A DNA stretch of 64,000 nucleotides from NCBI GenBank assembly GCA_948477625.1, contig CAOLNK010000001.1:63946-127945 (forward strand), in the 5' to 3' direction. The notes under the pieces were generated by a model that saw only the letters and a program-made list of their open reading frames with translations, had not been told where the DNA came from and made no database searches. Of the stretch, positions 4,660-56,548 are shown in pieces (the first letter of the stretch is position 1; each line of letters starts with the position of its first letter). A program made the translations under genes and the position numbers. The DNA is from an uncultured Candidatus Saccharibacteria bacterium (GTDB lineage: Bacteria > Patescibacteriota > Saccharimonadia > Saccharimonadales > Saccharimonadaceae).

Positions 4660-5828
4660 AAAATCAAATTACCATCGCAAAACATAACCTCAAGCTCGTC
4701 ATGCTCGAATCGGCATTGACGGCAGCTCTGTTATCAATGTCAATCATGACGCCATTTTTCTATTCGATTGGACTCAGCCAGCTCCAGATTTCACAGACGC
4801 AAGTGATTTTCACTGTAGTGATGGTGTTTCTTAATCTCCCTACAGGTTGGCTCGCCGACCGCTTTAGTCGCAAATGGGCTAATGTGATTGGTGATTTTGG
4901 CGTGGCGCTGACTTTTATCGCTTATGCTATGTCACAAAATTTCTTGATGGTTGTCGTTTGTGAGTGCTCTCTAGGTTTCTTTATGGCACTGAGCCAAGGA
5001 GTTGACCAGAGTTTGCTGCGGCACTTCTGTCAGAAAATTAACCCTAGCGAAGATTTCTTCCGTCAGAAAACCGCTCGGCTGAACTGTTGGCATTATGTAG
5101 TAATGCTGGTTTTAGTTTGGCTAGGCGGTCCGATTGGCGCGATTAGTCTCCGCTTGGCGGTTGCGCTCTCTGGCGTTCCATATATTATTGGCGGCATTGC
5201 TAGCCTTATGGTAGCCGATGATAGTAAAAAATTGGTTACCGACAAAAATCCATTCCGCGACATGCTACGAATCGTTGTGAGTAGCTTTCGTAATCAACCC
5301 CTGCGTCTACGTATTTTTACCTATGCTATTGGCCGGGAAATGACGCACGCTGTGATTTGGGTTTTTACACCACTTTTAATTATGGCGGGTGTTCCTCTGG
5401 CGATTGTATCAACCGCTTGGGCACTTAACGCCATGGCAAGCCTACTCGGTGCTCGATTGGCCACTAAATTTGGCTTCAAGCTCAAGGATTGGCAAATCTT
5501 TGCTCTGCCCTTAGCGATAATGGCGGTCAGCATGAGTATCATTGGTATACACCTGAACATTATTACCATTTGGTTCTATTTGTTAATGGGTGTTGTGCAA
5601 GGTTGGACTGGCGCCACATTGATTTCGTTAGTACAGCACTATACGTGCCCCGAAGAACAAACGTCCGTGATCTCTTTAACCAGTATCGTTGGGCGTTTAG
5701 TTTACATCCCCACTAGCTTATTGGTTGGTTGGGTTGGTGACTGGCAATTAGCACGCACCCCTTTGGTGGTCTTGCTGTGCTTTGCCCCAGTTGGGCTATT
5801 CCTGACTTTCCATCTTGCGAGAGAATAG
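4656..5828 (+). CDS. MFS transporter
   Basis: 390 aa with about 11-12 hydrophobic helices and an MFS loop motif (GWLADRFSRKW). The start overlaps the upstream stop (ATGA). Confidence 0.8.
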   Translation: MKNQITIAKHNLKLVMLESALTAALLSMSIMTPFFYSIGLSQLQISQTQVIFTVVMVFLNLPTGWLADRFSRKWANVIGDFGVALTFIAYAMSQNFLMVVVCECSLGFFMALSQGVDQSLLRHFCQKINPSEDFFRQKTARLNCWHYVVMLVLVWLGGPIGAISLRLAVALSGVPYIIGGIASLMVADDSKKLVTDKNPFRDMLRIVVSSFRNQPLRLRIFTYAIGREMTHAVIWVFTPLLIMAGVPLAIVSTAWALNAMASLLGARLATKFGFKLKDWQIFALPLAIMAVSMSIIGIHLNIITIWFYLLMGVVQGWTGATLISLVQHYTCPEEQTSVISLTSIVGRLVYIPTSLLVGWVGDWQLARTPLVVLLCFAPVGLFLTFHLARE

Positions 5829-5835
5829 CTCTGAC

Positions 5836-5861
5836 CCCACAAGTTATTATTGTGGGGTTTT
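5836..5861. terminator. bidirectional terminator hairpin
   Basis: ccccacaa / ttgtgggg stem, with A and T runs on either side. Confidence 0.6.
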
Positions 5862-5870
5862 CATTTCTCT

Positions 5871-6326
5871 AAAAGATCGGCACCGAACCGCGGCGTACCA
5901 AAGGCAGCGGAGGGAGAAACCGTTGTAGCGGTTATTCGGGCCATTCGACGGGTTCACACCAGTAGCATTAAAGTTGAGGTTGTAAGCGCTAGGCGTAGCC
6001 ACGCCGTCATACCGCGTACTAGAGCCACGCGACGACCACCAGTAGCCGTTGATGCCAGCGTTCCAAGACTTACCATCGTTAGGATTGAGGTTCCCGCTGC
6101 GCACGTTACCCCTCACAGTTTCATCAAATAGCCCCGAAGACAAATTCCATGCCATCGCAAAGCGAAAGCAGGTCTAGAAGTTCATTTTATTGATGACAAC
6201 CGTGGTTGCCAGGTGACAAACCTCAGCATATCTCTTGCGATACTGTAGAGGGGAACTTCACGATCTTTTCTGGAGAACCGCCGGCGAGCGGAGGAGTGAG
6301 CTCAAGCTGCCTTTGGTGCCCGTGGA
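5871..6326 (-). repeat. lectin-like cassette copy A (FISUMP/DUF1566-like C-terminal coding segment plus conserved flanks)
   Basis: The core at 5901-6104 encodes VRSG..GYWWSSR..AYNLNF..GFSLRCL. The flanks are shared with copy E: AAAAGATCG at 5871 and CGATCTTTT at 6261, plus a 68-nt block at 6259-6326. There is no SD or convincing start. Confidence 0.7.
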
Positions 6327-6351
6327 TATATGTCCATGTTATAATAATAAC

Positions 6352-6729
6352 ATGGATAAAAGAGTTACTGTTTCGAGTAAAAATGTAAAACTGATTTATG
6401 CTAACCGAATATGCTGTTTCGATAATGAGCAAACAGATATCAAGATTGAGCTCACCAACAAAAAAGAAGATGAGCTAAGGTTAAGTTTTTATTTTAAATA
6501 TTCTAATAGCTCAGAGCCTAAAGTTGACATTCATCCCAATACTAAAGCTGGTATCGACATTAAGCTTACAAACTTCAATAACCCTCTTGGTATGGGACTA
6601 AAAAGACCAATATTAATTGGTAAACTAGACGCAAAGAGTGTGTTCATGCTATTCAATATTTACAAGAACGATGATTCTAACCCTATTCTGGATTTAAGTC
6701 TATATATGGAGAGCTCAAATGTCGGGTAA
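6352..6729 (+). CDS. hypothetical protein (AT-rich cassette gene 1)
   Basis: 125 aa starting at MDKRV, 6 nt after a TATAAT box (leaderless). The segment is visibly AT-rich compared with its neighbours. Confidence 0.5.
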   Translation: MDKRVTVSSKNVKLIYANRICCFDNEQTDIKIELTNKKEDELRLSFYFKYSNSSEPKVDIHPNTKAGIDIKLTNFNNPLGMGLKRPILIGKLDAKSVFMLFNIYKNDDSNPILDLSLYMESSNVG

Positions 6730-7105
6730 AGGTTTCAATACTGACATACAACAAATCAAAACAGACGAAATTTGCGACAATCTGAATGAGAAAATCATTG
6801 CTATTACTGAATCAAAAGCGAGATTAGTCTATCAAAAGTATACCGGTATCCCCACAGCAGGCGCAATGCTATCGGATTTTGGCCTTCTTGTTGCTTTTGC
6901 TACACCTCTCATAACATCCGATTTTAATGGTATCCTGGGGTTTTCACCAGAGGTTTTAAAAGCCTGTTTTATAGTTGCATCGATAGTGTTTGCTTGTAAA
7001 TTTATCGGGTCTACCTTTCGCTATATAACGAAAGGTAGACGAATGAATGAAGAAAGTTTTCTGAAAGAGTTAAAGGGCCAGACAGAAGAGAAAAAGTTAT
7101 CGTAA
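6719..7105 (+). CDS. hypothetical membrane protein (AT-rich cassette gene 2)
   Basis: 128 aa, overlapping gene 1 by 11 nt. It has two hydrophobic helices (FGLLVAFATPLI and CFIVASIVFACKFIG). Confidence 0.5.
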   Translation: MSGKGFNTDIQQIKTDEICDNLNEKIIAITESKARLVYQKYTGIPTAGAMLSDFGLLVAFATPLITSDFNGILGFSPEVLKACFIVASIVFACKFIGSTFRYITKGRRMNEESFLKELKGQTEEKKLS

Positions 7106-7179
7106 AGCTTCGTAATTGGGTTTCAGTGGCGACTTCGCAAAAAAATAACACCACAAAGGTGTTATCGACTATCATTGCC

Positions 7180-7268
7180 TGGTGCACCTGACTAGACTCG
7201 AACTAGCACAGCTTAAAATCGCCACTACCACCTCAAGGTAGCGTGTCTACCAATTCCACCACAGGTGC
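7180..7268 (-). tRNA. tRNA-Leu (anticodon GAG), class II long variable arm, CCA encoded
   Basis: Manual cloverleaf: acceptor GCACCTG/CAGGTGC, anticodon loop TTGAGGT, T-loop TTCGAGT. Confidence 0.9.
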
Positions 7269-7448
7269 AAAGGCAAACAATGATACACTTATTATAGCAA
7301 AAATCCCAAAATCCACAAGTCCTATCTATGTGTTGTAAAAATTACAATAATTTTACCATAAAAGTCTTGCAAAAACCATAAACATCATGTATTATAGAGT
7401 CACAAAAGTCATGTATAAACATAAAAATTTAAAACAGGAAAACACACA

Positions 7449-8084
7449 ATGGAAAAAACTATCCAGAAGTTACTGGTCTTGACCGGTATTTTCATTGGCG
7501 CAGCCGTTGCGCTCACTCCACTTACTACTTACGCCGATTCGTCTAGTTGTCGTCCAACTGGCGCGCCGGCTGACCCAGATGAAGTTATCGATGTCAATAC
7601 TGCAGATTACGCCGAAAATGGCAACCAGAATAATACTAATGTCTGCGTCTATGTCGACACCGTTCTTTCACTCGATGCCGCTAATGGTGGTGACAAAATT
7701 ACAATGTATCCCGACATGGTACGTACCGGTCAATTCAACGTCCAGGTGCGTAGTGCTATGCCCTACACTATCTCTCTGAGCGCCGAGGAACCTGAGCTCA
7801 AAGAAGTCACCACCGAAAGCTACTTCATTCCTGCTCGTAGTGAAATTGCTGCCGGCAAGGTGGGTTGGGGAATTCGCAAGGCCAGCCAAACCGAAGGCTA
7901 CACCGCCGTTGCCACTGTACCACAAGTCTTCTTCGACAGTACTACCGATGACAATGGTACCGGTACGGACGTTGCAGATCTTTCCACTTGGCACGCTTTT
8001 GAAATCGGTGTCTCTGTAACCGACAAAGTCCCACAGGGAACTTACGCTACGGAAGTGACAGTTACTGCCGCAGTCAAAGAATAA
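7449..8084 (+). CDS. secreted surface protein, WxL/CscB-C-like (paralog family of 51086 and 52811)
   Basis: It has a signal peptide ending TTYA|DSS, a central WG motif and a C-terminal GTYATEVTVTAAV beta-strand motif. It lies next to a DUF916-like gene. Confidence 0.5.
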   Translation: MEKTIQKLLVLTGIFIGAAVALTPLTTYADSSSCRPTGAPADPDEVIDVNTADYAENGNQNNTNVCVYVDTVLSLDAANGGDKITMYPDMVRTGQFNVQVRSAMPYTISLSAEEPELKEVTTESYFIPARSEIAAGKVGWGIRKASQTEGYTAVATVPQVFFDSTTDDNGTGTDVADLSTWHAFEIGVSVTDKVPQGTYATEVTVTAAVKE

Positions 8085-8103
8085 GTGCTATAATAAGCAT
8101 ATA

Positions 8104-9054
8104 ATGCTTAAGAAAACTGCTAAAATTTTATCCATTCTGTTTTTCGCCATGACTTTCTCTCTTGGCCAGATATCGCCTGCCTCGGCGCTTGAGGCTGGCG
8201 ATATTGTCATTCAAATCAAACCCGCCGACCAAGAGATTGACCTTGCCCCGGGCAAGGTGGTGCGTAGCTCAATCACTGTGCAGAATGTGGGTCGCCTGCC
8301 TTTTACCTTCACAGTTTCCGCCAAACCGTACCAGGTCACCAACGAGAATTACGACCCTGATTTCGTTACCGAAAGCTCTTATACTAAGCTTCATAATTGG
8401 ATTACTTTTTCCCAAGATACTTTCCAGTTAGAGCCAGGTGCCTCACAGGATGTAGTTTTCACTATCACCGTGCCTGATGGTGTTCCTGGCGGCGGACAAT
8501 ACGCCGCTATCATCGCCGAAACCCGTGATAGCATGTCTGAAGATGCTAATGTGCGCATTATTAGCCAGTTAGCTTCGCTGATTTACGCGCACGTCGAGGG
8601 CGAAGAACATGTTGGTGGTGTCCTGATGAGCCACAGCCTGCCATCATTTTTGTTTGGCTCACCTTTTACTGCGCGCGTGACAGTCAAAAATGATGGCAAT
8701 GTTGACTTCCGCCTCACTCACAAGCTCAATATTCGCGATTTCTTCACCAATCGCGAGGTTCTCACCGAGACTTCAGTCGACGAGAATGGCAAGTTCCTTG
8801 CTAATGCCACTCCGATGATTTTGCCCGAAACTCAGCGTAGTAGTACTATCACTTGGGATGGCGCTCCGCAACTGGGCGTATTTAAAGTCACCCAGACTAT
8901 CTCCTTCCTTGACCAAACTTACACTTTCGATCAAGTTGTCATTCTGTGCCCAATTTGGCTGGCTGGTGCTGTTGCCTTCTTTGTCTTGCTGATTATCCTT
9001 TGGGTGATTTTGCGCCTATGCGGTCGCAAGCGCCGTCGCCCCCAAGTAATCTAA
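8104..9054 (+). CDS. cell-surface protein, DUF916/DUF3324 (CscA)-like with C-terminal TM anchor
   Basis: It has a signal peptide, two Ig-like halves (VVRSSITVQNVGRLPFTF and VTVKNDGNVDF), and a C-terminal TM followed by an RKRRR tail. Confidence 0.55.
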   Translation: MLKKTAKILSILFFAMTFSLGQISPASALEAGDIVIQIKPADQEIDLAPGKVVRSSITVQNVGRLPFTFTVSAKPYQVTNENYDPDFVTESSYTKLHNWITFSQDTFQLEPGASQDVVFTITVPDGVPGGGQYAAIIAETRDSMSEDANVRIISQLASLIYAHVEGEEHVGGVLMSHSLPSFLFGSPFTARVTVKNDGNVDFRLTHKLNIRDFFTNREVLTETSVDENGKFLANATPMILPETQRSSTITWDGAPQLGVFKVTQTISFLDQTYTFDQVVILCPIWLAGAVAFFVLLIILWVILRLCGRKRRRPQVI

Positions 9055-50685: not shown

Positions 50686-51015
50686 TCACTGACCCATGTT
50701 TGTTGTCTGATCGATTATTTCCACCTTACGCTCAATAAAATCAATTGCCGTCTGTAATTCCTTTAATTTCTCCCACATCTGACGCTTTTTGGCTTCCAAA
50801 ATCGCTTTGCGTTCTGGCAAAGTTGTGGCGCCACCACGGTTTAAGCAGTACAGAGTCCGCAACAGCTCAAGCTGTTCAGCATCTAACACTCGGTACTTAT
50901 TACGCTGGCGTTTAATCCCACGTATTGTCCCTCTTTTTAAAATTTTACGAACGACATTTCTCGAAGCCCCCAAAATCTCACATGCCTGCGCTACTGTATA
51001 AGTCTCATTATTCAT
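50686..51015 (-). CDS. MerR/excisionase-type HTH DNA-binding protein
   Basis: N-terminal HTH (YTVAQACEILGASRNVVRKILKRGTI) and a coiled-coil C-terminus. The promoter is a leaderless TATAAT. It is adjacent to the inversion locus. Confidence 0.6.
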   Translation of the reverse strand: MNNETYTVAQACEILGASRNVVRKILKRGTIRGIKRQRNKYRVLDAEQLELLRTLYCLNRGGATTLPERKAILEAKKRQMWEKLKELQTAIDFIERKVEIIDQTTNMGQ

Positions 51016-51035
51016 AACTTTATTATATCATTAAG

Positions 51036-51067
51036 AATCCCCCACTCCTGCGAGAGAATGGGGGATT
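51036..51067 (-). terminator. terminator of surface-protein variant 1
   Basis: aatccccca / tgggggatt stem. The loop tctcgcagg is homologous to the variant-2 terminator, with compensatory stem changes. Confidence 0.6.
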
Positions 51068-51085
51068 AAAATTACCAGTTTTAGG

Positions 51086-51676
51086 TTATTTTACGGTCGC
51101 GGTGAAAACCACAGTACCCTTGTAAGTACCCTGTTGCTGAGTGCTATTGGCGGACGCGCCAAAGTTAACGGTCGTTACGTCTTCCATCTCTGCGTCGCCA
51201 GCAGCAGCGGTATGCGCATGAATCTCCTCCGGTGCGCCAGTCACAGCAGTCCAGGCGCCGTAGCCACCCTCGGCTTCGGCATTGGCTAAACGGTAACCCC
51301 AAGCGGAAGTACCACCAGCAATGTTGGCGCTTGAAGAAATGGTATCGCCATTTTCATTCGTCAAGACACCATTACCCTCTGCATTGGCGGTTAGAGCCTT
51401 GATTGTCAAGCCGTAACCAACTTCCGAGTTTGAACTTACGGTGACTTTGAGGTCCTTGGTGGTAGAGACGTTGTTTAAAGTCATCTCTTCTAGATCAACT
51501 TTGCCATCAGTGGCATCGGTTGAGATAGAGATGGCACCACCAACCTCAACTTGAACGTCCGCGCTTGCGCTCTGGCTGTATGGTTCATCCGCAGCATACG
51601 AACTCAGTGGCAATGCAGCAACACCAAGACCGGCCACTACGCCCAAGACAGCGATAGCTTTTGACATTTTGGACAT
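51086..51676 (-). CDS. secreted surface protein variant 1 (WxL/CscB-C-like family)
   Basis: 196 aa. The first 47 codons are identical to 52811-53431. It has a signal peptide (...LSSYA|ADE) and a C-terminal GTYKGTVVFTATVK. Confidence 0.6.
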   Translation of the reverse strand: MSKMSKAIAVLGVVAGLGVAALPLSSYAADEPYSQSASADVQVEVGGAISISTDATDGKVDLEEMTLNNVSTTKDLKVTVSSNSEVGYGLTIKALTANAEGNGVLTNENGDTISSSANIAGGTSAWGYRLANAEAEGGYGAWTAVTGAPEEIHAHTAAAGDAEMEDVTTVNFGASANSTQQQGTYKGTVVFTATVK

Positions 51677-51742
51677 AAATTTCTCCTTTATTTTTTCTAT
51701 TTTTGCTTATTTATTTTATGACCTTTGTAATTGTTATTATAT
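51534..51742. repeat. left arm of perfect 209-bp inverted repeat (IR-L)
   Basis: It is the reverse complement of 52745-52953, compared base by base. It contains the TATAAT box, the leader, the SD and codons 1-47 of variant 1. Confidence 0.9.
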
Positions 51743-51782
51743 TGAAGGGTTACTAATAATATACGGTGGGAGAAGGAGCTAT

Positions 51783-52673
51783 ATGCAATATAAACTTGAA
51801 CAGGTCGTACCCAAGCGGAAGGAGGTTTATCGTCAAGTCTACAGATATTATGACTACTGCGAACATGTGCGCAGTATGAGCCAGGTTACCTTAACTAGCA
51901 AAATCTATACCATTAACAACTTCTTGCGTACCCTTAAAATTGGTCGCCTAGAAGATATTACCGATCAGATGGTTTATGGTTGGCTTGGCGCTCAACGAGC
52001 ACGCGGCAATACTGGACGTTCTATCAATGACCGCTTAGCGCATGTTAAAGCAATGCTACGCTGGCAACAAGAGATGAATGTTACTATACCCAACCTACAT
52101 TTGGCGTTGCTAACCAAAATGAATGAAGAACCACCGCGTAAAGTGTATTTTACTCGAGCCGATATTGGTATAGTTCTAACCCAGGCTAACGAAATCGAAT
52201 GGTTGTTGATTCGCCTGGCATTTGATTGTGGGCTTCGTATTGGTGAATTACAAAGATTACGTCTGGAACATCTCAATCATGATAGGCTGATGATTATTGG
52301 TAAGGGGAATAAACGTCGCTATGTTTATCTGTGCGAAGAGGTAAAAAACAGACTCCAGCAGTGGCTGGACAATAATTATATAAAGGATTACTTTTGGCCC
52401 AGTCCAGTCAATCTCCACACACCTCTCAATAGTTGTACGCTTCGGAGTTATATGAAACGTGCTTTTGCTCGTTCGGGGTATTATGACTTCTGCCCGCATG
52501 ACTTGCGCCACTCTTACGCAACGGACTTAAAATTCCTAGGTATACCCACTCGCCAAATTCAGGCTGGTCTTGGCCACGCTACCGAAGCAGTGACCGAACG
52601 CTATCTGAGCGACTTAGAGGGTTTTGATCTACGCCAAATTTACCAAATCAAATACGCCACTCCTTTAACTTAG
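51783..52673 (+). CDS. tyrosine site-specific recombinase (XerC/D-integrase family)
   Basis: GLRIGEL (Arg I), HDLRHSYAT (H-x-x-R) and LGHATEAVTERYL (catalytic Tyr region). The start is at MQYKLEQ after a GGAG SD. Confidence 0.85.
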   Translation: MQYKLEQVVPKRKEVYRQVYRYYDYCEHVRSMSQVTLTSKIYTINNFLRTLKIGRLEDITDQMVYGWLGAQRARGNTGRSINDRLAHVKAMLRWQQEMNVTIPNLHLALLTKMNEEPPRKVYFTRADIGIVLTQANEIEWLLIRLAFDCGLRIGELQRLRLEHLNHDRLMIIGKGNKRRYVYLCEEVKNRLQQWLDNNYIKDYFWPSPVNLHTPLNSCTLRSYMKRAFARSGYYDFCPHDLRHSYATDLKFLGIPTRQIQAGLGHATEAVTERYLSDLEGFDLRQIYQIKYATPLT

Positions 52674-52722
52674 CCTGTGGAAAACTCTACACTAAATCAT
52701 GAATTTCGCACAGAAAAGTCTA

Positions 52723-52751
52723 TTGACTTAAGCATAACCGTCCTATATAAT
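52723..52751 (+). promoter_or_regulatory. promoter of variant 2: -35 TTGACT in the unique core, -10 TATAAT inside IR-R
   Basis: The spacer is exactly 17 nt. The equivalent -35 position next to IR-L reads GTATAT. Confidence 0.6.
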
Positions 52752-52953
52752 AACAATTACAAAGGTCATAAAATAAATAAGCAAAAATAGAAAAAATAAA
52801 GGAGAAATTTATGTCCAAAATGTCAAAAGCTATCGCTGTCTTGGGCGTAGTGGCCGGTCTTGGTGTTGCTGCATTGCCACTGAGTTCGTATGCTGCGGAT
52901 GAACCATACAGCCAGAGCGCAAGCGCGGACGTTCAAGTTGAGGTTGGTGGTGC
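52745..52953. repeat. right arm of perfect 209-bp inverted repeat (IR-R)
   Basis: See IR-L. Confidence 0.9.
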
Positions 52954-53431
52954 GATTTCCATTGAAGTCGATAACGGTGCAACTGAACCGGATGCGGTTA
53001 AGAACCTAGTTGACCTCGGTCAAATCAAGCTTAACGGTGACATCGTAAGCAAAGGCCTCAAAGTTACTGTCAAAACCAACGCTGGTGTACAGGATGATGT
53101 GGCTTATAGCTTGACTATGACTACTGAAACCGCCAACAACGCTCTTATCAACGAGAACGGTGTTGAATTACCTGCCGGTGTACCAACACAAGGTACTTCA
53201 GCTTGGGGTTATGCTCTTGGTTCTAGCTTGACTGATACCACTGCTGATATTACTGGCTGGGCTGCTGTCCCTGCTAAGGGTTCAATTCCTGCTGAACTCA
53301 AAGCTAGCGGCAATGTTCCTTCCGCTAGCCACAGCGAAGACACTTTTGTGAACTTCGGTGCTACGGCTTCCAACAACCAGAAGGAAGGTGTCTACAAGGG
53401 TACTGTAGTCTTCACTGCAACCGTTCAATAA
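52811..53431 (+). CDS. secreted surface protein variant 2 (WxL/CscB-C-like family)
   Basis: 206 aa. It has the same N-terminus as variant 1, a divergent central part, and a C-terminal GVYKGTVVFTATVQ. Confidence 0.6.
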   Translation: MSKMSKAIAVLGVVAGLGVAALPLSSYAADEPYSQSASADVQVEVGGAISIEVDNGATEPDAVKNLVDLGQIKLNGDIVSKGLKVTVKTNAGVQDDVAYSLTMTTETANNALINENGVELPAGVPTQGTSAWGYALGSSLTDTTADITGWAAVPAKGSIPAELKASGNVPSASHSEDTFVNFGATASNNQKEGVYKGTVVFTATVQ

Positions 53432-53450
53432 TCTAATCTCTAGATTTCTA

Positions 53451-53481
53451 AATCCCGTCCTCTCGCAGGGGCGGGATTTTT
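53451..53481 (+). terminator. rho-independent terminator of variant 2
   Basis: aatcccgtcc-tctcgcagg-ggcgggattttt. Confidence 0.7.
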
Positions 53482-53543
53482 CTTGTGCTTTGCCTTGATT
53501 TCTAAACTTATGTGCTATATAATGGAGGGAAATAAGGAGGTTA

Positions 53544-54473
53544 ATGAAAATTTTTCAACAATTGAAGTATGTTTTGGCTGTTGTTTTCGCATCTGCGGCA
53601 ATGGCATTATGTGGTGCTAGTAGCGTCAGTGCAGCCGATGTCCCTGATTATCGTCTGCAGATTTCTCCCGCCAAAGAGGATATTGGCGATTTGAAACCTG
53701 GAGAGACCTACACCGGTGTCTTCAAGGTACAAAACACGGGTGCCAAAGATTTTAATTTTAAAGTCAGCGTCACGCCATATTCGGTAGCTGATCAATATTA
53801 CTCCACTAATGAAGAGTCCAACCAATATACTGATATTGTCGAGTGGGTCAAGTTCTCTCAGACTTCTGGTCATGTTGACCCAAATGGTGAAGTTGAAATT
53901 ACCTACACCGTGACTGTTCCGGCTGATGTTCCAGCCGGTGGGCAGTATGCCCTGCTAACAGCTGAGTTAGTGAATGAGTCTGGTAGCACAGATGGTTCCG
54001 GTCTCACTACGATTAACCGTGTTGGCATGATTCTATATTCCAACGTTCAAGGTAACACTCGCAAGACTGCTTCCGTTATCGAAAACAAGGTCCCAAGCTT
54101 CCTCTTAAACCCTCCTGTCCAGGCTACTTCAATTGTCGAGAACACCGGTAACACCCACACCAACGCCAAGTACGTTTTGCAAGTTTATCCATTGTTTGGT
54201 GATGAAGAAGTCTATACTAACGAAGAAAATCCAACCACATTGACCATTCTTCCCGAAACTCAGCGCTTCAATACTATTACTTGGCCTAATGCGCCACACC
54301 TAGGCATTTTCCGTGTCAAACAAACAGTGACTATATTTGATAAAGTATCCGTTACCGAAAAAGTTGTTTTCCTCTGCCCGATTTGGTTCCTCTTCATTAT
54401 TATCGCACTCATCTTCTGTGCTATCTTCTGGATCGTCACTCGTATCCGCGCTCGCCGGCAAGACCGCAGATAA
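53544..54473 (+). CDS. cell-surface protein, DUF916/DUF3324 (CscA)-like, C-terminal TM anchor
   Basis: Signal peptide, YRLQISPAKEDIGDLKPGETYTGVFKVQNTG, a second Ig-like half, and a TM followed by an RARRQDRR tail. It is a paralog of 8104 and 54505. Confidence 0.55.
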   Translation: MKIFQQLKYVLAVVFASAAMALCGASSVSAADVPDYRLQISPAKEDIGDLKPGETYTGVFKVQNTGAKDFNFKVSVTPYSVADQYYSTNEESNQYTDIVEWVKFSQTSGHVDPNGEVEITYTVTVPADVPAGGQYALLTAELVNESGSTDGSGLTTINRVGMILYSNVQGNTRKTASVIENKVPSFLLNPPVQATSIVENTGNTHTNAKYVLQVYPLFGDEEVYTNEENPTTLTILPETQRFNTITWPNAPHLGIFRVKQTVTIFDKVSVTEKVVFLCPIWFLFIIIALIFCAIFWIVTRIRARRQDRR

Positions 54474-54504: not shown

Positions 54505-55491
54505 ATGAAAAGGTTTGTAAACATTATCCTTGCCACAGTCATGATGGTGGCCGGCGCTACCATGTTGCCACAGGCAGTTCATGCTGAAGACGAGAAAGCG
54601 GAATACAATCTACAAATTTCGCCAACCGCCGTTACTGTCACTTTGATGGGTGGTGATGTTCTAGAAGGGACTGCTAGCAAATGTCCAAAAGATGTCGACG
54701 GCGGCTGTGTTATGGAAGTCAAAAATATCGGCACTAAAGGATTGCGCTATCGTGTCTACGCTTCACCATATGTAGTAAAGGGCGAGAACTACGACCTCGA
54801 CTTCTCCGAGGAGGCCTCCACTTCTTATACCCAAATCTCTCGTTGGATTACGATTCTTGGCGAAGATGGTGGCTATGCCAAAGAAGCCGAGTTTGCCATT
54901 GAGCCAGGCGAAACCCAGACTATTCATTACCGCATTGATGTACCAGAAGATGTTCCCGGTGGTGCACAATACGCTGTGATTTGGGCTCAGACTATAGGTA
55001 CTACTACAACTAGTACCGGCGTGCAGGCTATTGCGCAGGCTGGCATGGTAGTTTCCGGTCGTACGATTGGCGACACGCAACAGACCTCTGACGTATATGA
55101 GTATGGCTTTGACCGCTTCGCTCTTAGTGGTCCACTCAAGGCTCAGGCAACCATCAAGAACACCGGTAACACTGACTTCGACGCCTACTATACCTACAAG
55201 GCTCGCACTATCTTTGGTAAGGAGATTTATACTGACCAGGGAACAATTGCTACTTTTCCAGATACAGAATATCATATTAACGTGAACTGGGAGAACCCAC
55301 CACTTTTAGGTATTTTCCAAGTAGAGTTCCGCGTGTCTGGCGCTGACACTGTCAAGACTGAGACTCACATTGTTGTGGTTATGCCAATTTTTGTGATAGT
55401 TTTGTTGATTTTATTGTTGACAGTTGCAATTGTCTGGATTATAATCATAATCAGAAAGCGCAAAGAGCGCAAAGCCCGCACCCTCGTGTAG
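54505..55491 (+). CDS. cell-surface protein, DUF916/DUF3324 (CscA)-like, C-terminal TM anchor
   Basis: Same architecture as 53544-54473: YNLQISPTAVTV..., VKNIGTKGL, and a TM followed by RKRKERKAR. Confidence 0.55.
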   Translation: MKRFVNIILATVMMVAGATMLPQAVHAEDEKAEYNLQISPTAVTVTLMGGDVLEGTASKCPKDVDGGCVMEVKNIGTKGLRYRVYASPYVVKGENYDLDFSEEASTSYTQISRWITILGEDGGYAKEAEFAIEPGETQTIHYRIDVPEDVPGGAQYAVIWAQTIGTTTTSTGVQAIAQAGMVVSGRTIGDTQQTSDVYEYGFDRFALSGPLKAQATIKNTGNTDFDAYYTYKARTIFGKEIYTDQGTIATFPDTEYHINVNWENPPLLGIFQVEFRVSGADTVKTETHIVVVMPIFVIVLLILLLTVAIVWIIIIIRKRKERKARTLV

Positions 55492-55594: not shown

Positions 55595-56548
55595 ATGCAA
55601 AAGACAAAGAAGCAACTTTTGGGCTTTGCTGGCTTAGCTGCAGTCGGTATTATGACTGCGGTGGCCTATGCTATGCCGGCCGCAGCGGCGGAAGATGTGC
55701 CACCTTCGGCAGATGGCGACGTGAACATTAGCGTCACTATCTTGCGCGGAAAGGCCACCGGCTACTTAATTAGCCCAGCTGACCAAAGTACCATCATGGG
55801 GAGTAGTGATATCACCTACGCCTATGAAGAAGTTAGTGCGGTAGAGGTAATTGTCGAACGTCTAACCAAAGATGGTTATGAAAAGGTTCTCGACAAGAAA
55901 TATGACAATTATGACCCAACCACCCACGGCACCAGTTCGGTCCCGATGAGCGAGATTGCTGGCTTCGGCGAATCAGAGTCAGACTACAAGGTGACCCTCA
56001 AGTTCTATGACGCCCAAGGTCAATATGCCAACGAAGATACCAGTACATTCAAATATCGCTTCATGAAGGCTGATATTGCAAAACAGCCAGCCTCTAACGG
56101 TGACCCAATTCTTAACGTCGAGATTAATGACGCCATTGATTCGGTCCGTGTTTATATTTATCGTGGCACTGAACCGCTTACCGATAAAGATGGCAATCAA
56201 GTCTTCGTTGACTTAACTCGCGACGATATCGATCCTGCCACGGGTAAAATCACCACTGTGCTGCCATTCGCAGATAATAATGCTAATGATGGCTCGTATG
56301 CGATCGTTGTTGAAGGTTATGAGGGAACGCCTAGCGAAGGTCGCTTGCTTTCGATGATTACGCTTGATGCAGACTACAAGCTTATCAAACCAACTGATCC
56401 TAATCTCCCTGAAACCCCACCAAACACTGGTTTTGTAATCGGTAATCTTAACATTTCCCGCGTTGACTACCTCATTACGGGTCTCATCGTGTTCGGCACA
56501 GTTGCCAGCTTCGCGCTCTATCTTGTTTATCGCAAGAGCCGCCGCTAA
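55595..56548 (+). CDS. secreted protein with LPXTG-like C-terminal sorting signal
   Basis: Signal peptide (AYAMPAAAA), then a C-terminal PPNTG, a hydrophobic stretch and RKSRR. Confidence 0.45.
   Translation: MQKTKKQLLGFAGLAAVGIMTAVAYAMPAAAAEDVPPSADGDVNISVTILRGKATGYLISPADQSTIMGSSDITYAYEEVSAVEVIVERLTKDGYEKVLDKKYDNYDPTTHGTSSVPMSEIAGFGESESDYKVTLKFYDAQGQYANEDTSTFKYRFMKADIAKQPASNGDPILNVEINDAIDSVRVYIYRGTEPLTDKDGNQVFVDLTRDDIDPATGKITTVLPFADNNANDGSYAIVVEGYEGTPSEGRLLSMITLDADYKLIKPTDPNLPETPPNTGFVIGNLNISRVDYLITGLIVFGTVASFALYLVYRKSRR

Follow-up and report, generated by a model that had tools for sequence, protein, structure and literature searches.

A putative recombinase-bearing inversion switch between two pilin-like genes in a Saccharibacteria bacterium

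Saccharibacteria and other CPR bacteria are epibionts that live attached to host bacteria, and the thin pili of CPR bacteria, which are thought to mediate host contact, were structurally identified only in 2026. To our knowledge, the ways in which these bacteria choose or change partners, and evade immunity in the gut or mouth, are largely unknown. The locus considered here lies in a 64,000-nucleotide stretch of DNA (the window) from an uncultured Candidatus Saccharibacteria bacterium, in which a recombinase gene separates two divergently oriented paralogous genes with identical 5' ends. The question it raises is whether this is a static duplication, or whether inversion of the central segment determines which of the two genes is expressed, as the initial annotation of the window had proposed.

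Repeat arms, recombinase and split promoter

The features of the locus are collected in Table 1. Compared base by base, the two arms are exactly 209 bp long with zero mismatches, and a repeat search of the window extends the inverted repeat to 228 nt at 97% identity; at 209 bp a chance origin is excluded. Each arm carries a TATAAT box (52746-52751 in the right arm and, as its complement, 51736-51741 in the left), a leader, about 55 nt in length, whose Shine-Dalgarno sequence reads AAAGGAG, and 143 coding nucleotides (47 codons plus 2 nt) that belong to geneL on the left and to geneR on the right. The repeat boundary falls at or within the -10 hexamer. Just outside the outer edge of the repeat single mismatches are separated by two matches, at third codon positions only, with GCC ATC TCT in one gene standing against GCG ATT TCC in the other. 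The extent of the repeats, the content of both arms and the purely synonymous character of the first differences beyond them are therefore as the initial annotation had given them. The core alone recurs as contigs of about 1.0-1.1 kb in many public assemblies, and the locus accounts for these recurrent orphan contigs of gut metagenomes, a point of some relevance to assembly practice.

Table 1. Positions of the features of the locus within the window, with the basis or content of each
Feature	Position	Strand	Description
Small HTH_17/excisionase-family protein	50686-51015	-	109 aa; 3' of geneL, same strand
Terminator-like hairpin after geneL	51038-51057	-	Homologous to hairpin after geneR
geneL, pilin variant L (predicted)	51086-51676	-	196 aa; ORF, family alignment, weak NF058581 match
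Left arm	51534-51742	.	-10 box, leader, Shine-Dalgarno, signal peptide and 19 mature codons of geneL
Left counterpart of promoter	51736-51764	-	Repeat TATAAT; no -35 box (GTATAT / CGTATA)
Invertible core (putative)	51743-52744	.	1002 bp, unique sequence between arms
Xer-like tyrosine recombinase	51783-52676	+	296 aa plus stop codon (ATG 51783 to 52673); Pfam/NCBIfam, catalytic residues
Composite promoter (predicted)	52723-52751	+	TTGACT and 17-nt spacer in core, TATAAT in repeat; A-rich tract upstream
Right arm	52745-52953	.	Mirror copy of left arm, by base-by-base check
geneR, pilin variant R (predicted)	52811-53431	+	206 aa; AF2 model and Foldseek
Intrinsic terminator after geneR	53450-53479	+	Hairpin prediction
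Separate promoter of assembly genes	53495-53523	+	TTGATT-17-TATAAT
PamC/D-like, WxLIP-like chaperone-like protein p309	53544-54473	+	309 aa, two-domain, membrane-anchored; AF2, Foldseek
Second chaperone-like protein p328	54505-55491	+	328 aa, about 29% identity to p309, C-terminal TM helix
Secreted 317-aa protein	55595-56548	+	C-terminal TM anchor; ORF, synteny

The tyrosine recombinase reported for the core is intact. It matches Phage_integrase (PF00589; 1.8e-24, 86.9 bits against a cut-off of 27.1) and Phage_int_SAM_1 (3.8e-7), and with a PF00589 score above the gathering threshold and its catalytic residues present it qualifies as a member of the tyrosine recombinase superfamily. These residues (R152, K174, H239, R242, H265 and Y274) form an R-K-H-R-H-Y set that is invariant across 41 family members, and the recombinase belongs to a distinct clade. 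Judged by its sequence, the enzyme is Xer-like in both fold and sequence and not an orthologue of XerC or XerD, the dimer resolvases, for which it scores 105 bits against 335 (TIGR02224, XerC) and 77 against 330 (TIGR02225, XerD). A FimB/FimE-type invertase was likewise rejected (21.6 and 18.8 bits for PRK09870/09871, against cut-offs of 221 and 222), as was a serine invertase of the Hin/Gin type, since the enzyme is a tyrosine recombinase and those systems use a serine recombinase of the resolvase/invertase family. More distant recombinase relatives (L021-L024 and L026-L037, 37-45% identity) were not accepted as members of the switch group, being without flanking inverted repeats and without pilin genes. 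The -35 box of a candidate promoter for the recombinase gene itself sits inside the repeat, so that this promoter would be independent of core orientation.

At the inner end of the arms, 24 nt (ATAATAACAATTACAAAGGTCATA) show a conservation between species that the remaining leader lacks. This is consistent with a protein-binding site; inspection of these 24 nt by eye gave no convincing dyad symmetry of a Xer/Cre-type core site.

The repeat boundary also divides a predicted promoter. On the right, TTGACT (52723-52728) lies in the core 17 nt from the repeat-borne TATAAT, and no sequence between 50.6 and 53.7 kb scores higher as a sigma-70-like site than this pair (11 of 12 matches, without an extended TG). 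At the left core edge the best -35 candidate matches at 2 of 6 positions and is unusable, and the promoter scan found no further sigma-70-like site within the arm. The asymmetry that had been claimed, with a -35 box at the right edge only, is thus confirmed, and the locus has the structure expected of an inverton, namely perfect 209-bp arms and outward promoter elements at one edge of the core. The promoter consensus of Saccharibacteria was assumed here from sigma-70 rules. On that assumption geneR is predicted to be ON in the window orientation and geneL OFF or low, transcription being inferred. Some expression of geneL is possible even so, since the -10 box on the predicted OFF side has kept a perfect TATAAT in the window.

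Pilin-like products and neighbouring genes

The products of geneL and geneR are 53% identical overall and both carry YKGTVVFTATV at the C-terminus. In the family alignment the geneL protein comprises a signal peptide, a conserved N-terminal strand motif, a variable middle and a conserved C-terminal strand. The signal peptide ends in LPLSSYA, with A as the next residue, and there is no cysteine, so that the lipobox requirement for a lipoprotein is not met. Searches of Pfam, NCBIfam and PDB sequence profiles gave nothing significant for either protein, and their identity came only from structure prediction followed by Foldseek. The AF2 model of the geneR protein (pLDDT 85.6) has a truncated Ig-like pilin fold with one folded domain, residues 49-205, and its best Foldseek matches (CfaB, CsuA/B, FimG, FimA and PapA) are all chaperone-usher pilins, with E-values of 2e-4 to 1e-3, probability 1.0 and modest TM-scores (0.4-0.6). 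The geneL protein aligns with positions 3-145 of the 148 in the NF058581 model (CPR_Pam_pilin_C) at E 0.006, its 16.6 bits being far below the cut-off of 55, and the geneR protein does not match this model. On the strength of these predictions we model both products as single-domain, donor-strand-type pilin subunits rather than generic surface proteins; that they form filaments is inferred. The initial description of the pair as paralogous surface proteins is refined by the models, the Foldseek matches and the weak HMM match to donor-strand-type pilins of a Pam/WxL-like operon.

The genes that follow geneR support such an assignment. The AF2 model of p309 (pLDDT 85.8) consists of two beta-sandwich domains and a C-terminal TM helix (280-308), and Foldseek places WxLIP (9i1y, 2.6e-13) first, with CfaA, CsuC, PapD and FaeE at 1e-9 to 6e-8. 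The Pam pilus of Ca. Mycosynbacter amalyticus, which is specific to CPR/Saccharimonadia, is built of signal-peptide pilins with an Ig-like donor-strand fold, and its operon encodes two PapD-like chaperones with C-terminal TM helices and a TM-anchored terminator protein (bioRxiv 10.64898/2026.03.03.709456). As far as predicted structures allow, the present locus resembles that operon, in that two membrane-anchored chaperones, PapD/FimC-like and WxLIP-like, adjoin pilin genes with the Ig-like donor-strand fold. It differs in the pilins themselves. Those of Pam, PamA and PamB, are two-domain proteins of 39-55 kDa (bioRxiv 10.64898/2026.03.03.709456), whereas the products of geneL and geneR are single-domain proteins of about 17-18 kDa when mature, which fail the two-domain criterion and stay below the NF058581 cut-off. 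It is possible that the secreted 317-aa protein is a PamR-like pilus anchor, an inference only, which rests on its position and on comparison with the description of the pam operon.

On the other side of the locus, the MerR/excisionase-like HTH neighbour noted initially is indeed present, matching Pfam HTH_17 (8.7e-8) and TIGR01764 'excise' (29.3 bits against a cut-off of 28.8). It is possible that this protein acts as a directionality or regulatory factor. Its gene has homologues at only three of the related loci (L011, L014 and L020) and is missing elsewhere, and from its absence at several of them it follows that it is not an essential part. The homologous terminators that had been described were found as hairpins 3' of both pilin genes. 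An Rfam scan of 50.5-53.7 kb gave matches at chance level only.

Related loci, core orientation and alternative explanations

The Saccharibacteria origin of the window is confirmed: mouse-gut metagenomes and MAGs contain identical contigs, and the related loci lie in Saccharibacteria MAGs in 27 of 27 cases. The recombinases of homologous switch loci are 54-65% identical to that of the window, and every one of these loci keeps the recombinase in its core. At the recombinase-3' edge TTGAC followed by T, A or C, the 17-nt spacing to TATAAT and the upstream A-tract are found in all 10 of 10 homologous loci. The opposite edge has no -35 box in 11 of 11 (at most 3 of 6 positions match) and its -10 box reads CATAAT in 10 of 11. 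Within a genome the arms are identical between about -66 and about +86, where the signal peptide ends, yet the same codons differ at third positions between species. This indicates, at the level of sequence comparison, that the arms evolve in concert and that their identity is kept by recombination and not by selection on the DNA sequence, in agreement with the earlier claim that the 5' ends of the paralogs are being homogenised. One related locus (L014) has the recombinase and the -35 box outside, with both pilin genes between the two sites; as far as its sequence tells, this layout is topologically equivalent, one promoter half still facing one of two genes. Decayed repeats or an inactivated recombinase in relatives had been named in advance as grounds for refuting the switch; the relatives have intact arms, invariant catalytic residues and the same promoter asymmetry.

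Both core orientations occur among the assemblies. Between two congeneric loci of about 80% nucleotide identity (L016 and L017) the flanks are colinear, whereas the core from repeat to repeat has opposite orientations and the breaks fall at the repeats; the core of L018 is inverted too. Of the contigs that match the window at 100% identity, L001-L006 and L008 share its orientation, while in two metaSPAdes contigs (L007 and L009, 5.6x and 7.1x k-mer coverage) geneR is joined to the recombinase-5' edge. The comparison of orientations in relatives that had been suggested thus gave both states (L016 and L018 against L017 and others), in short-read assemblies only. The weight of this is limited: the repeats (148-209 bp) are longer than the assembler k-mers, paired-end contigs could be misjoined, and no reads were mapped. 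Logan/MEGAHIT contigs with the inverted junction (L010 and L056) were not counted as orientation evidence because the repeat exceeds k and the graph is the same for both orientations. A scan of JGI metagenomes with the promoter-junction sequence returned two core-only contigs of about 1.4 kb that do not inform on orientation.

In our judgement the locus is probably a self-contained inversion switch alternating two pilus-subunit variants. Recombination between the arms would flip the core, and the opposite pilin gene would then receive its promoter half, along with any transcription that runs on out of the recombinase gene. Each pilin gene would retain its own -10 box, 5' leader, ribosome-binding site and signal peptide within the inverted repeat, and the mobile half would consist of the A-rich upstream tract, the TTGACT -35 box and the 17-nt spacer, present at the 3' end of the recombinase only. 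The assembly genes (two chaperones and the TM-anchored protein) have their own promoter and would stay on, so that the cell would swap the exposed, variable body of the pilin and keep its secretion and polymerisation parts constant. Of the flip-flop in expression proposed initially, the asymmetry, the concerted arms, the catalytic residues and, in assemblies, the two orientations are now observed; inversion within one population, transcription decided by the -35 box and the requirement for the recombinase remain inferences.

It is the agent of inversion that is most open to another explanation. The recombinase probably catalyses the flip, and RecA-type recombination, for which there are 150-209 bp of homology, could contribute or take its place. 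Long perfect arms are typical of homologous recombination or gene conversion, and less so of a short site-specific site, so the role of the recombinase is unproven. It is conceivable, if unlikely, that the inversion is real and is driven by general homologous recombination (RecA), as in C. fetus sap. The recombinase would then be an integrase in decay, or one that has been domesticated, and would serve some other purpose, if it serves any. Long, perfect arms that evolve in concert are a gene-conversion signature, and the nearest recombinase relatives outside the switch clade adjoin tail-fibre-like, prophage-like genes, as would suit this explanation. It does not account well for the retention of a catalytically intact recombinase in the core of every homologous locus, or for the conservation of the inner 24 nt of the arms where other leader sequence is not conserved, and hsdS invertons provide a known case of tyrosine recombinases at work on long repeats (PMC7672463).

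Less likely still is that there is no functional switch, the locus being static and made up of a pilin gene duplicated in inverted orientation on either side of an inserted integrase gene, with both copies constitutive from repeat-borne promoters and the two orientations an artefact of assembly. The reliance on short-read assemblies over repeats longer than the k-mer leaves room for this, as does the intact left -10 box of the window. Against it, the -35 box, spacer and A-tract are confined to one edge in ten diverged loci, the other edge having none of these and a -10 box that is weakened; even synonymous sites do not differ between the arms; the layout of L014 keeps the logic of one promoter and two genes in a different topology; and the arm contains no other sigma-70-like site. 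That the switch mainly controls a target other than the pilins, through read-through into the chaperone operon in one orientation and the HTH gene in the other, each on the same strand as its pilin gene and open to a strong promoter reading across terminators, or through expression of the recombinase itself, is very improbable, given strong hairpins after both pilin genes, a separate promoter for the chaperone operon, the absence of the HTH gene from many related loci and the orientation-independent -35 box of the recombinase promoter.

Known inversion systems and biological meaning

By analogy, the logic of the proposed inversion switch is closest to that of Mycoplasma vpma/vsp (Xer1), Salmonella Hin and Campylobacter fetus sap. 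In C. fetus sap, the parallel drawn initially, the inverted segment is 6.2 kb long and contains transport genes, there is no dedicated recombinase, inversion is largely RecA-dependent and the promoter is unsplit. Both systems have a unique invertible promoter between opposed paralogs whose conserved 5' regions are the inverted repeats, but the core here is 1002 bp long, with the recombinase inside and a split promoter. The similarity in logic stands, with Mycoplasma and Salmonella at least equally close. The Salmonella H segment (fljBA) is inverted by Hin, a serine recombinase, which uses 26-bp hix sites and a Fis enhancer; the segment contains the promoter in full, and its inversion turns one operon plus a repressor ON or OFF. 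A segment of about 1 kb with its own recombinase gene and an outward promoter at one end is common to both, whereas our locus has a tyrosine recombinase, a split promoter and a direct alternation of two divergent genes. In E. coli, fimS is an element of 314 bp with 9-bp repeats, under ON/OFF control by FimB and FimE, which are encoded outside it. It shares with our locus a tyrosine recombinase and an invertible promoter element serving the major subunit of a donor-strand-exchange pilus, and differs from the A/B choice proposed here and in recombinase subfamily. In Moraxella bovis and M. lacunata, where the pili are type IV and Piv is a DEDD-type recombinase, inversion exchanges the variable 3' coding parts, while the promoter stays fixed and the 5' coding region constant; the Q/I inversion resembles our locus in alternating two pilin variants by DNA inversion.

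In M. agalactiae vpma and M. bovis vsp, paralogous genes share a common 5' UTR and signal-peptide region and a single promoter, and locus-encoded, Xer-like Xer1/Mbr recombinases invert DNA in the conserved 5' region, which places another gene behind the promoter (PMC2268961). These traits recur here: the 5' UTR and signal peptide are common to both genes, there is a single promoter, and the locus encodes its own Xer-like recombinase. Unlike in Mycoplasma, there are two genes only, and the recombinase is itself encoded within the DNA that would invert. The promoter is cut by the end of the repeat, so that the -35 box would travel with the core and leave the -10 box in place. Instead of lipoproteins the genes encode pilin-like proteins, which carry a type I signal peptide, and the bacterium belongs to the CPR.

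The initial annotation knew of no such system described for CPR bacteria or Saccharibacteria, and none was found here. A literature search on phase variation, invertons and tyrosine recombinases in Saccharibacteria and Patescibacteria found only in-silico hsdS invertons (PMC7672463) and no surface-gene switch, and the Pam study makes no mention of a recombinase, inversion or phase variation (bioRxiv 10.64898/2026.03.03.709456). We incline, by a small degree, to the wider interpretation that host-associated Saccharibacteria domesticated a prophage-type integrase, in some lineages with an excisionase-like partner. The outcome would be a flip-flop cassette of 1 kb in which recombination at the -10 box restores a promoter, so that two Pam/WxL-type pilin variants alternate, and this would be the first case of phase or antigenic variation in the CPR. 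The switch would mean that even very small genomes invest in programmed DNA rearrangement, and the compact promoter split over a recombination boundary may serve the design of synthetic switches. If the interpretation is true, a filament type implicated in contact with host bacteria could switch specificity for the host bacterium, or evade mammalian immunity or phages, and a simple, conserved two-pilin switch would offer a concrete and testable handle on partner choice.

A promoter divided between core and arms

The feature described is real and conserved, and the central result is the asymmetry of promoter elements between the two edges of the core. Base-by-base comparison bore out the initial annotation's claim of perfect inverted repeats (exactly 209 bp; a repeat finder stretches them to 228 nt at 97%), and each of these arms carries, as had been described, a TATAAT box and a leader (about 55 nt, with AAAGGAG), followed by the initial 143 coding nt of one of the two divergent pilin-like genes, geneL and geneR. 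The 1002-bp core does encode a tyrosine recombinase (Pfam Phage_integrase, 1.8e-24), in whose family the catalytic residues R152, K174, H239, R242, H265 and Y274 are invariant (41-sequence alignment). The proposed -35 box, TTGACT, was found at the right core edge, 17 nt from the TATAAT of the right arm, and none was found at the left edge; TTGACT/TATAAT is the top sigma-70-like site in the 3.1 kb scanned, with 11/12 matches.

Features of the switch locus and of compared loci (window coordinates unless a locus is named)
Feature	Coordinates	Strand	Product	Remarks
Second pilin gene, without recombinase	7449-8084		211 aa	
Chaperone gene paired with it	8104-9054		316 aa	
HTH_17/excisionase-family gene	50686-51015	minus	109 aa	adjoins geneL side
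TATAAT region of HTH gene	51016-51040	minus		
Homologous 3' ends/terminators	51041-51062 and 53454-53475			candidate whole-module inversion sites
geneL	51086-51676	minus	196 aa	
Arms	51534-51742 and 52745-52953			
Possible divergent recombinase promoter	51731-51760			TTGTTA-18-AATAAT
Recombinase gene	51783-52673		296 aa	
-35 box	52723-52728			
geneR	52811-53431	plus	206 aa	
p309	53544-54473			next gene after geneR
Pilin genes of L011	4273-4890, 6021-6593			
L014 locus	5001-8260			uvrA, recombinase, -35 box, site, pilin (+), HTH (-), pilin (-), site, p309

At the recombinase-3' edge, the core end carrying the -35 box, an A-tract is followed by TTGAC[T/A/C], a 17-nt spacer (consensus TAAGCATAACCGTCC) and TATAAT in 10/10 loci, while at the opposite, recombinase-5' edge the best -35 score is at most 3/6 in 11/11 and the -10 box reads CATAAT in 10 of the 11. 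The arm boundary is therefore placed within the -10 hexamer or right at its margin, and a promoter can be completed by one side of the core only. The arm's innermost 24 nt (ATAATAACAATTACAAAGGTCATA) are kept across species and the remaining leader is not. This block may be a region of recombinase binding or crossover, and it coincides in part with the predicted transcription start and with a possible divergent recombinase promoter.

The most likely mechanism is recombination from arm to arm, which would invert the core and so shift the A-tract, -35 box and spacer, and with them any read-through out of the recombinase gene, from one pilin gene to that on the opposite side. It cannot be excluded from sequence alone that inversion is RecA-driven and that the recombinase has no part in it.

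Arm evolution and core orientation in related loci

Ten loci (L011, the truncated L012, L014-L020 and L025) share the synteny uvrA - (HTH) - pilin gene - recombinase - pilin gene - p309 - p328 - p317, in which p309 and p328 are chaperone-like proteins and p317 is a TM-anchored secreted protein. Comparison of repeat identity found perfect or near-perfect arms of 148-169 bp in most of them. These start in the -10 region, about -66 counted from the ATG, and end at about +86, where the signal peptide stops; in the window the arms continue for a further 19 codons. On the sequences compared, it is ongoing recombination or gene conversion, and not selection on DNA sequence, that keeps the arms identical, because the third positions of signal-peptide codons vary between species and are identical between both arms within each genome. 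In the window, mismatches just beyond the arms are confined to third codon positions, the two proteins differ in the middle and have the C-terminal YKGTVVFTATV in common, and homologous terminator hairpins lie 3' of both genes, all as had been claimed; overall identity of the two proteins is 53%.

With every locus drawn with its recombinase on the plus strand, both core orientations are seen in the assemblies of related genomes: the recombinase is directed at the chaperone genes in the window, L011, L015, L017, L019, L020 and L025, and at uvrA in L016 and L018. Nucleotide identity between L016 and L017 is about 80%; their flanks are colinear, the core is reversed from repeat to repeat with breakpoints at the arms, and orthologous pilin genes hold the same positions relative to the flanks. 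Of the contigs that match the window at 100% identity, L001-L006 and L008 show its orientation, and in L007 and L009 (metaSPAdes) geneR is joined via the arm to the recombinase-5' edge. Both orientations share one de Bruijn graph because the arms are longer than assembler k-mers, and orientation evidence is informative only with paired-end resolution. Moderate weight was given to L007 (5.6x k-mer coverage), L009 (7.1x) and long MAG contigs; Logan and MEGAHIT contigs (L010, L056, L054 and others) were discounted since the arms exceed k-mer length.

Two loci depart from these layouts. In L014 the two sites enclose both pilin genes and the HTH gene, leaving the recombinase and the -35 box outside; this layout is topologically equivalent and still pairs a single promoter half with two genes, with the reservation that it comes from a single MAG in which misassembly is not excluded. 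In L011 the geneR orthologue (86% identity) is on the uvrA side and the geneL orthologue (68%) on the chaperone side, the reverse of the window although recombinase orientation is the same, which suggests that inversion of the whole module is possible too, perhaps via the homologous 3' coding ends and terminators. A rival reading is that the locus is a static duplication and the orientation differences are assembly artefacts. Against it stand the one-sided promoter and its conservation, the concerted evolution of the arms, the L014 topology and the catalytic residues, which are invariant. The same four points argue against the switch chiefly regulating neighbouring genes.

The HTH/excisionase-like neighbour gene, also confirmed, has a TATAAT only about 6 nt 5' of its ATG and no Shine-Dalgarno, and may be translated from an mRNA without a leader, or else depend on geneL transcription reading through the 51038-51057 hairpin. 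In some otherwise near-identical strains (L001 and L004, 4856-5233) it is called as 125 aa, and the alignment with the window's gene is broken by an insertion of about 38 nt into pieces 1-149 and 140-330.

Pilin-like products and their chaperones

More than 400 clusters make up the geneL/geneR family, which lacks any Pfam domain. An N-terminal strand motif (V-x-V-x-V...AISI) and a C-terminal strand (Y-x-G-T-V-V-F-T-A) are conserved across it, a tryptophan (SAWGY) is invariant, and the middle is variable; the constant strands would keep both variants fit for secretion and assembly. The signal peptide MSKMSKAIAVLGVVAGLGVAALPLSSYA (residues 1-28 of the family alignment A2) is almost invariant in more than 40 proteins otherwise only 32-60% identical, and because this is far above the conservation of an ordinary Sec signal peptide, it may be a dedicated sorting or processing signal. 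geneL matches NCBIfam CPR_Pam_pilin_C weakly, over its full length but sub-threshold. The AlphaFold2 model of geneR (pLDDT 85.6) has a beta-sandwich at residues 49-205, and its top PDB matches are all chaperone-usher pilins (CfaB, CsuA/B, FimG, FimA and PapA; E 2e-4 to 1e-3, TM-scores 0.4-0.6).

The model of p309 (pLDDT 85.8) comprises two beta-sandwich domains and a C-terminal TM helix. Its top structural match is the Enterococcus faecium WxL-interacting protein, WxLIP (PDB 9i1y, 2.6e-13; also 9i25; both released in 2026), followed by the fimbrial chaperones CfaA, CsuC, PapD and FaeE; p328 is its paralogue. A promoter of its own serves the chaperone operon, each pilin gene ends in its own terminator, and the machinery genes would remain on in either orientation. 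Elsewhere in the window is a second pilin and chaperone pair: the pilin resembles the others in its signal peptide (...AVALTPLTTYA), contains a GWG motif and ends in GTYATEVTVTAAV, and its partner shares 33% identity with p309 and likewise carries a C-terminal TM helix.

The locus layout matches the pam operon of Ca. Mycosynbacter amalyticus, which encodes donor-strand pilins, a TM-anchored terminator and two membrane-anchored PapD-like chaperones, PamC and PamD; the paper describing it says nothing of recombinases or phase variation (bioRxiv 10.64898/2026.03.03.709456). PamA and PamB differ, however, from the present pilins, which are single-domain, and we therefore name the locus Pam/WxL-like without claiming membership. 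The pilin-like proteins also have a conserved Trp and a Y-x-G-T-x-x-F/W-T-x motif reminiscent of WxL domains. It is possible that CPR Pam operons are homologous to the WxL clusters of Firmicutes.

Origin of the recombinase and relation to known switches

Contigs with an exactly identical recombinase come from mouse-gut metagenomes and MAGs, and all 27 true relatives in the 185,579 species-representative genomes searched lie in Saccharibacteria MAGs. The family is discrete, with about 90 clusters at 40-98% identity, then a gap, and below it generic XerD-like matches at 1e-14. The enzyme is Xer-like, yet falls under the equivalog cut-offs for XerC, XerD and FimB/E-type invertases. Relatives at 37-45% identity (L021-L024, L026-L037) have neither flanking repeats nor pilin genes and adjoin tail-fibre-like, prophage-like genes (e.g. 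MAATLPYPNMDFTPLDVLTAAEMDQMVAND...), a setting reminiscent of the integrase end in Saccharibacteria prophages or in other mobile elements. Such integrases would be the likely ancestors of the switch recombinase, which has the look of a domesticated integrase. In these relatives a conserved ORF (about 100 aa, MERNGNVNV...AAAKAQPEM) lies just upstream.

Family members that share about 53% identity or more with the window's enzyme are very often on contigs of 1.0-1.1 kb, the size expected of a core between long inverted repeats assembling alone, and two JGI contigs matching the promoter-junction pattern are of the same core-only kind. Dozens of recombinase homologues occur on such orphan contigs in public assemblies (including L013, L064 and L065).

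In Salmonella Hin, a segment of about 1 kb holds the recombinase and an outward-facing promoter, and the packaging here is the same; C. fetus sap has the same layout between two divergent genes. The switch logic is that of Mycoplasma vpma/vsp with Xer1, which combines a conserved 5' UTR and signal peptide, a single promoter and a locus-encoded Xer-like recombinase (PMC2268961). The present locus differs in its promoter split at the -10, the tyrosine recombinase inside the element, its pilin targets and its CPR host. Literature searches found no prior description of such a switch, the sole related report being of in-silico hsdS invertons in Saccharibacteria (PMC7672463). The orphan-contig signature of a repeat-flanked core recurs and could be used to find further such switches, and the switch itself offers a testable route into surface variation, and possibly host switching, of epibiotic CPR bacteria.
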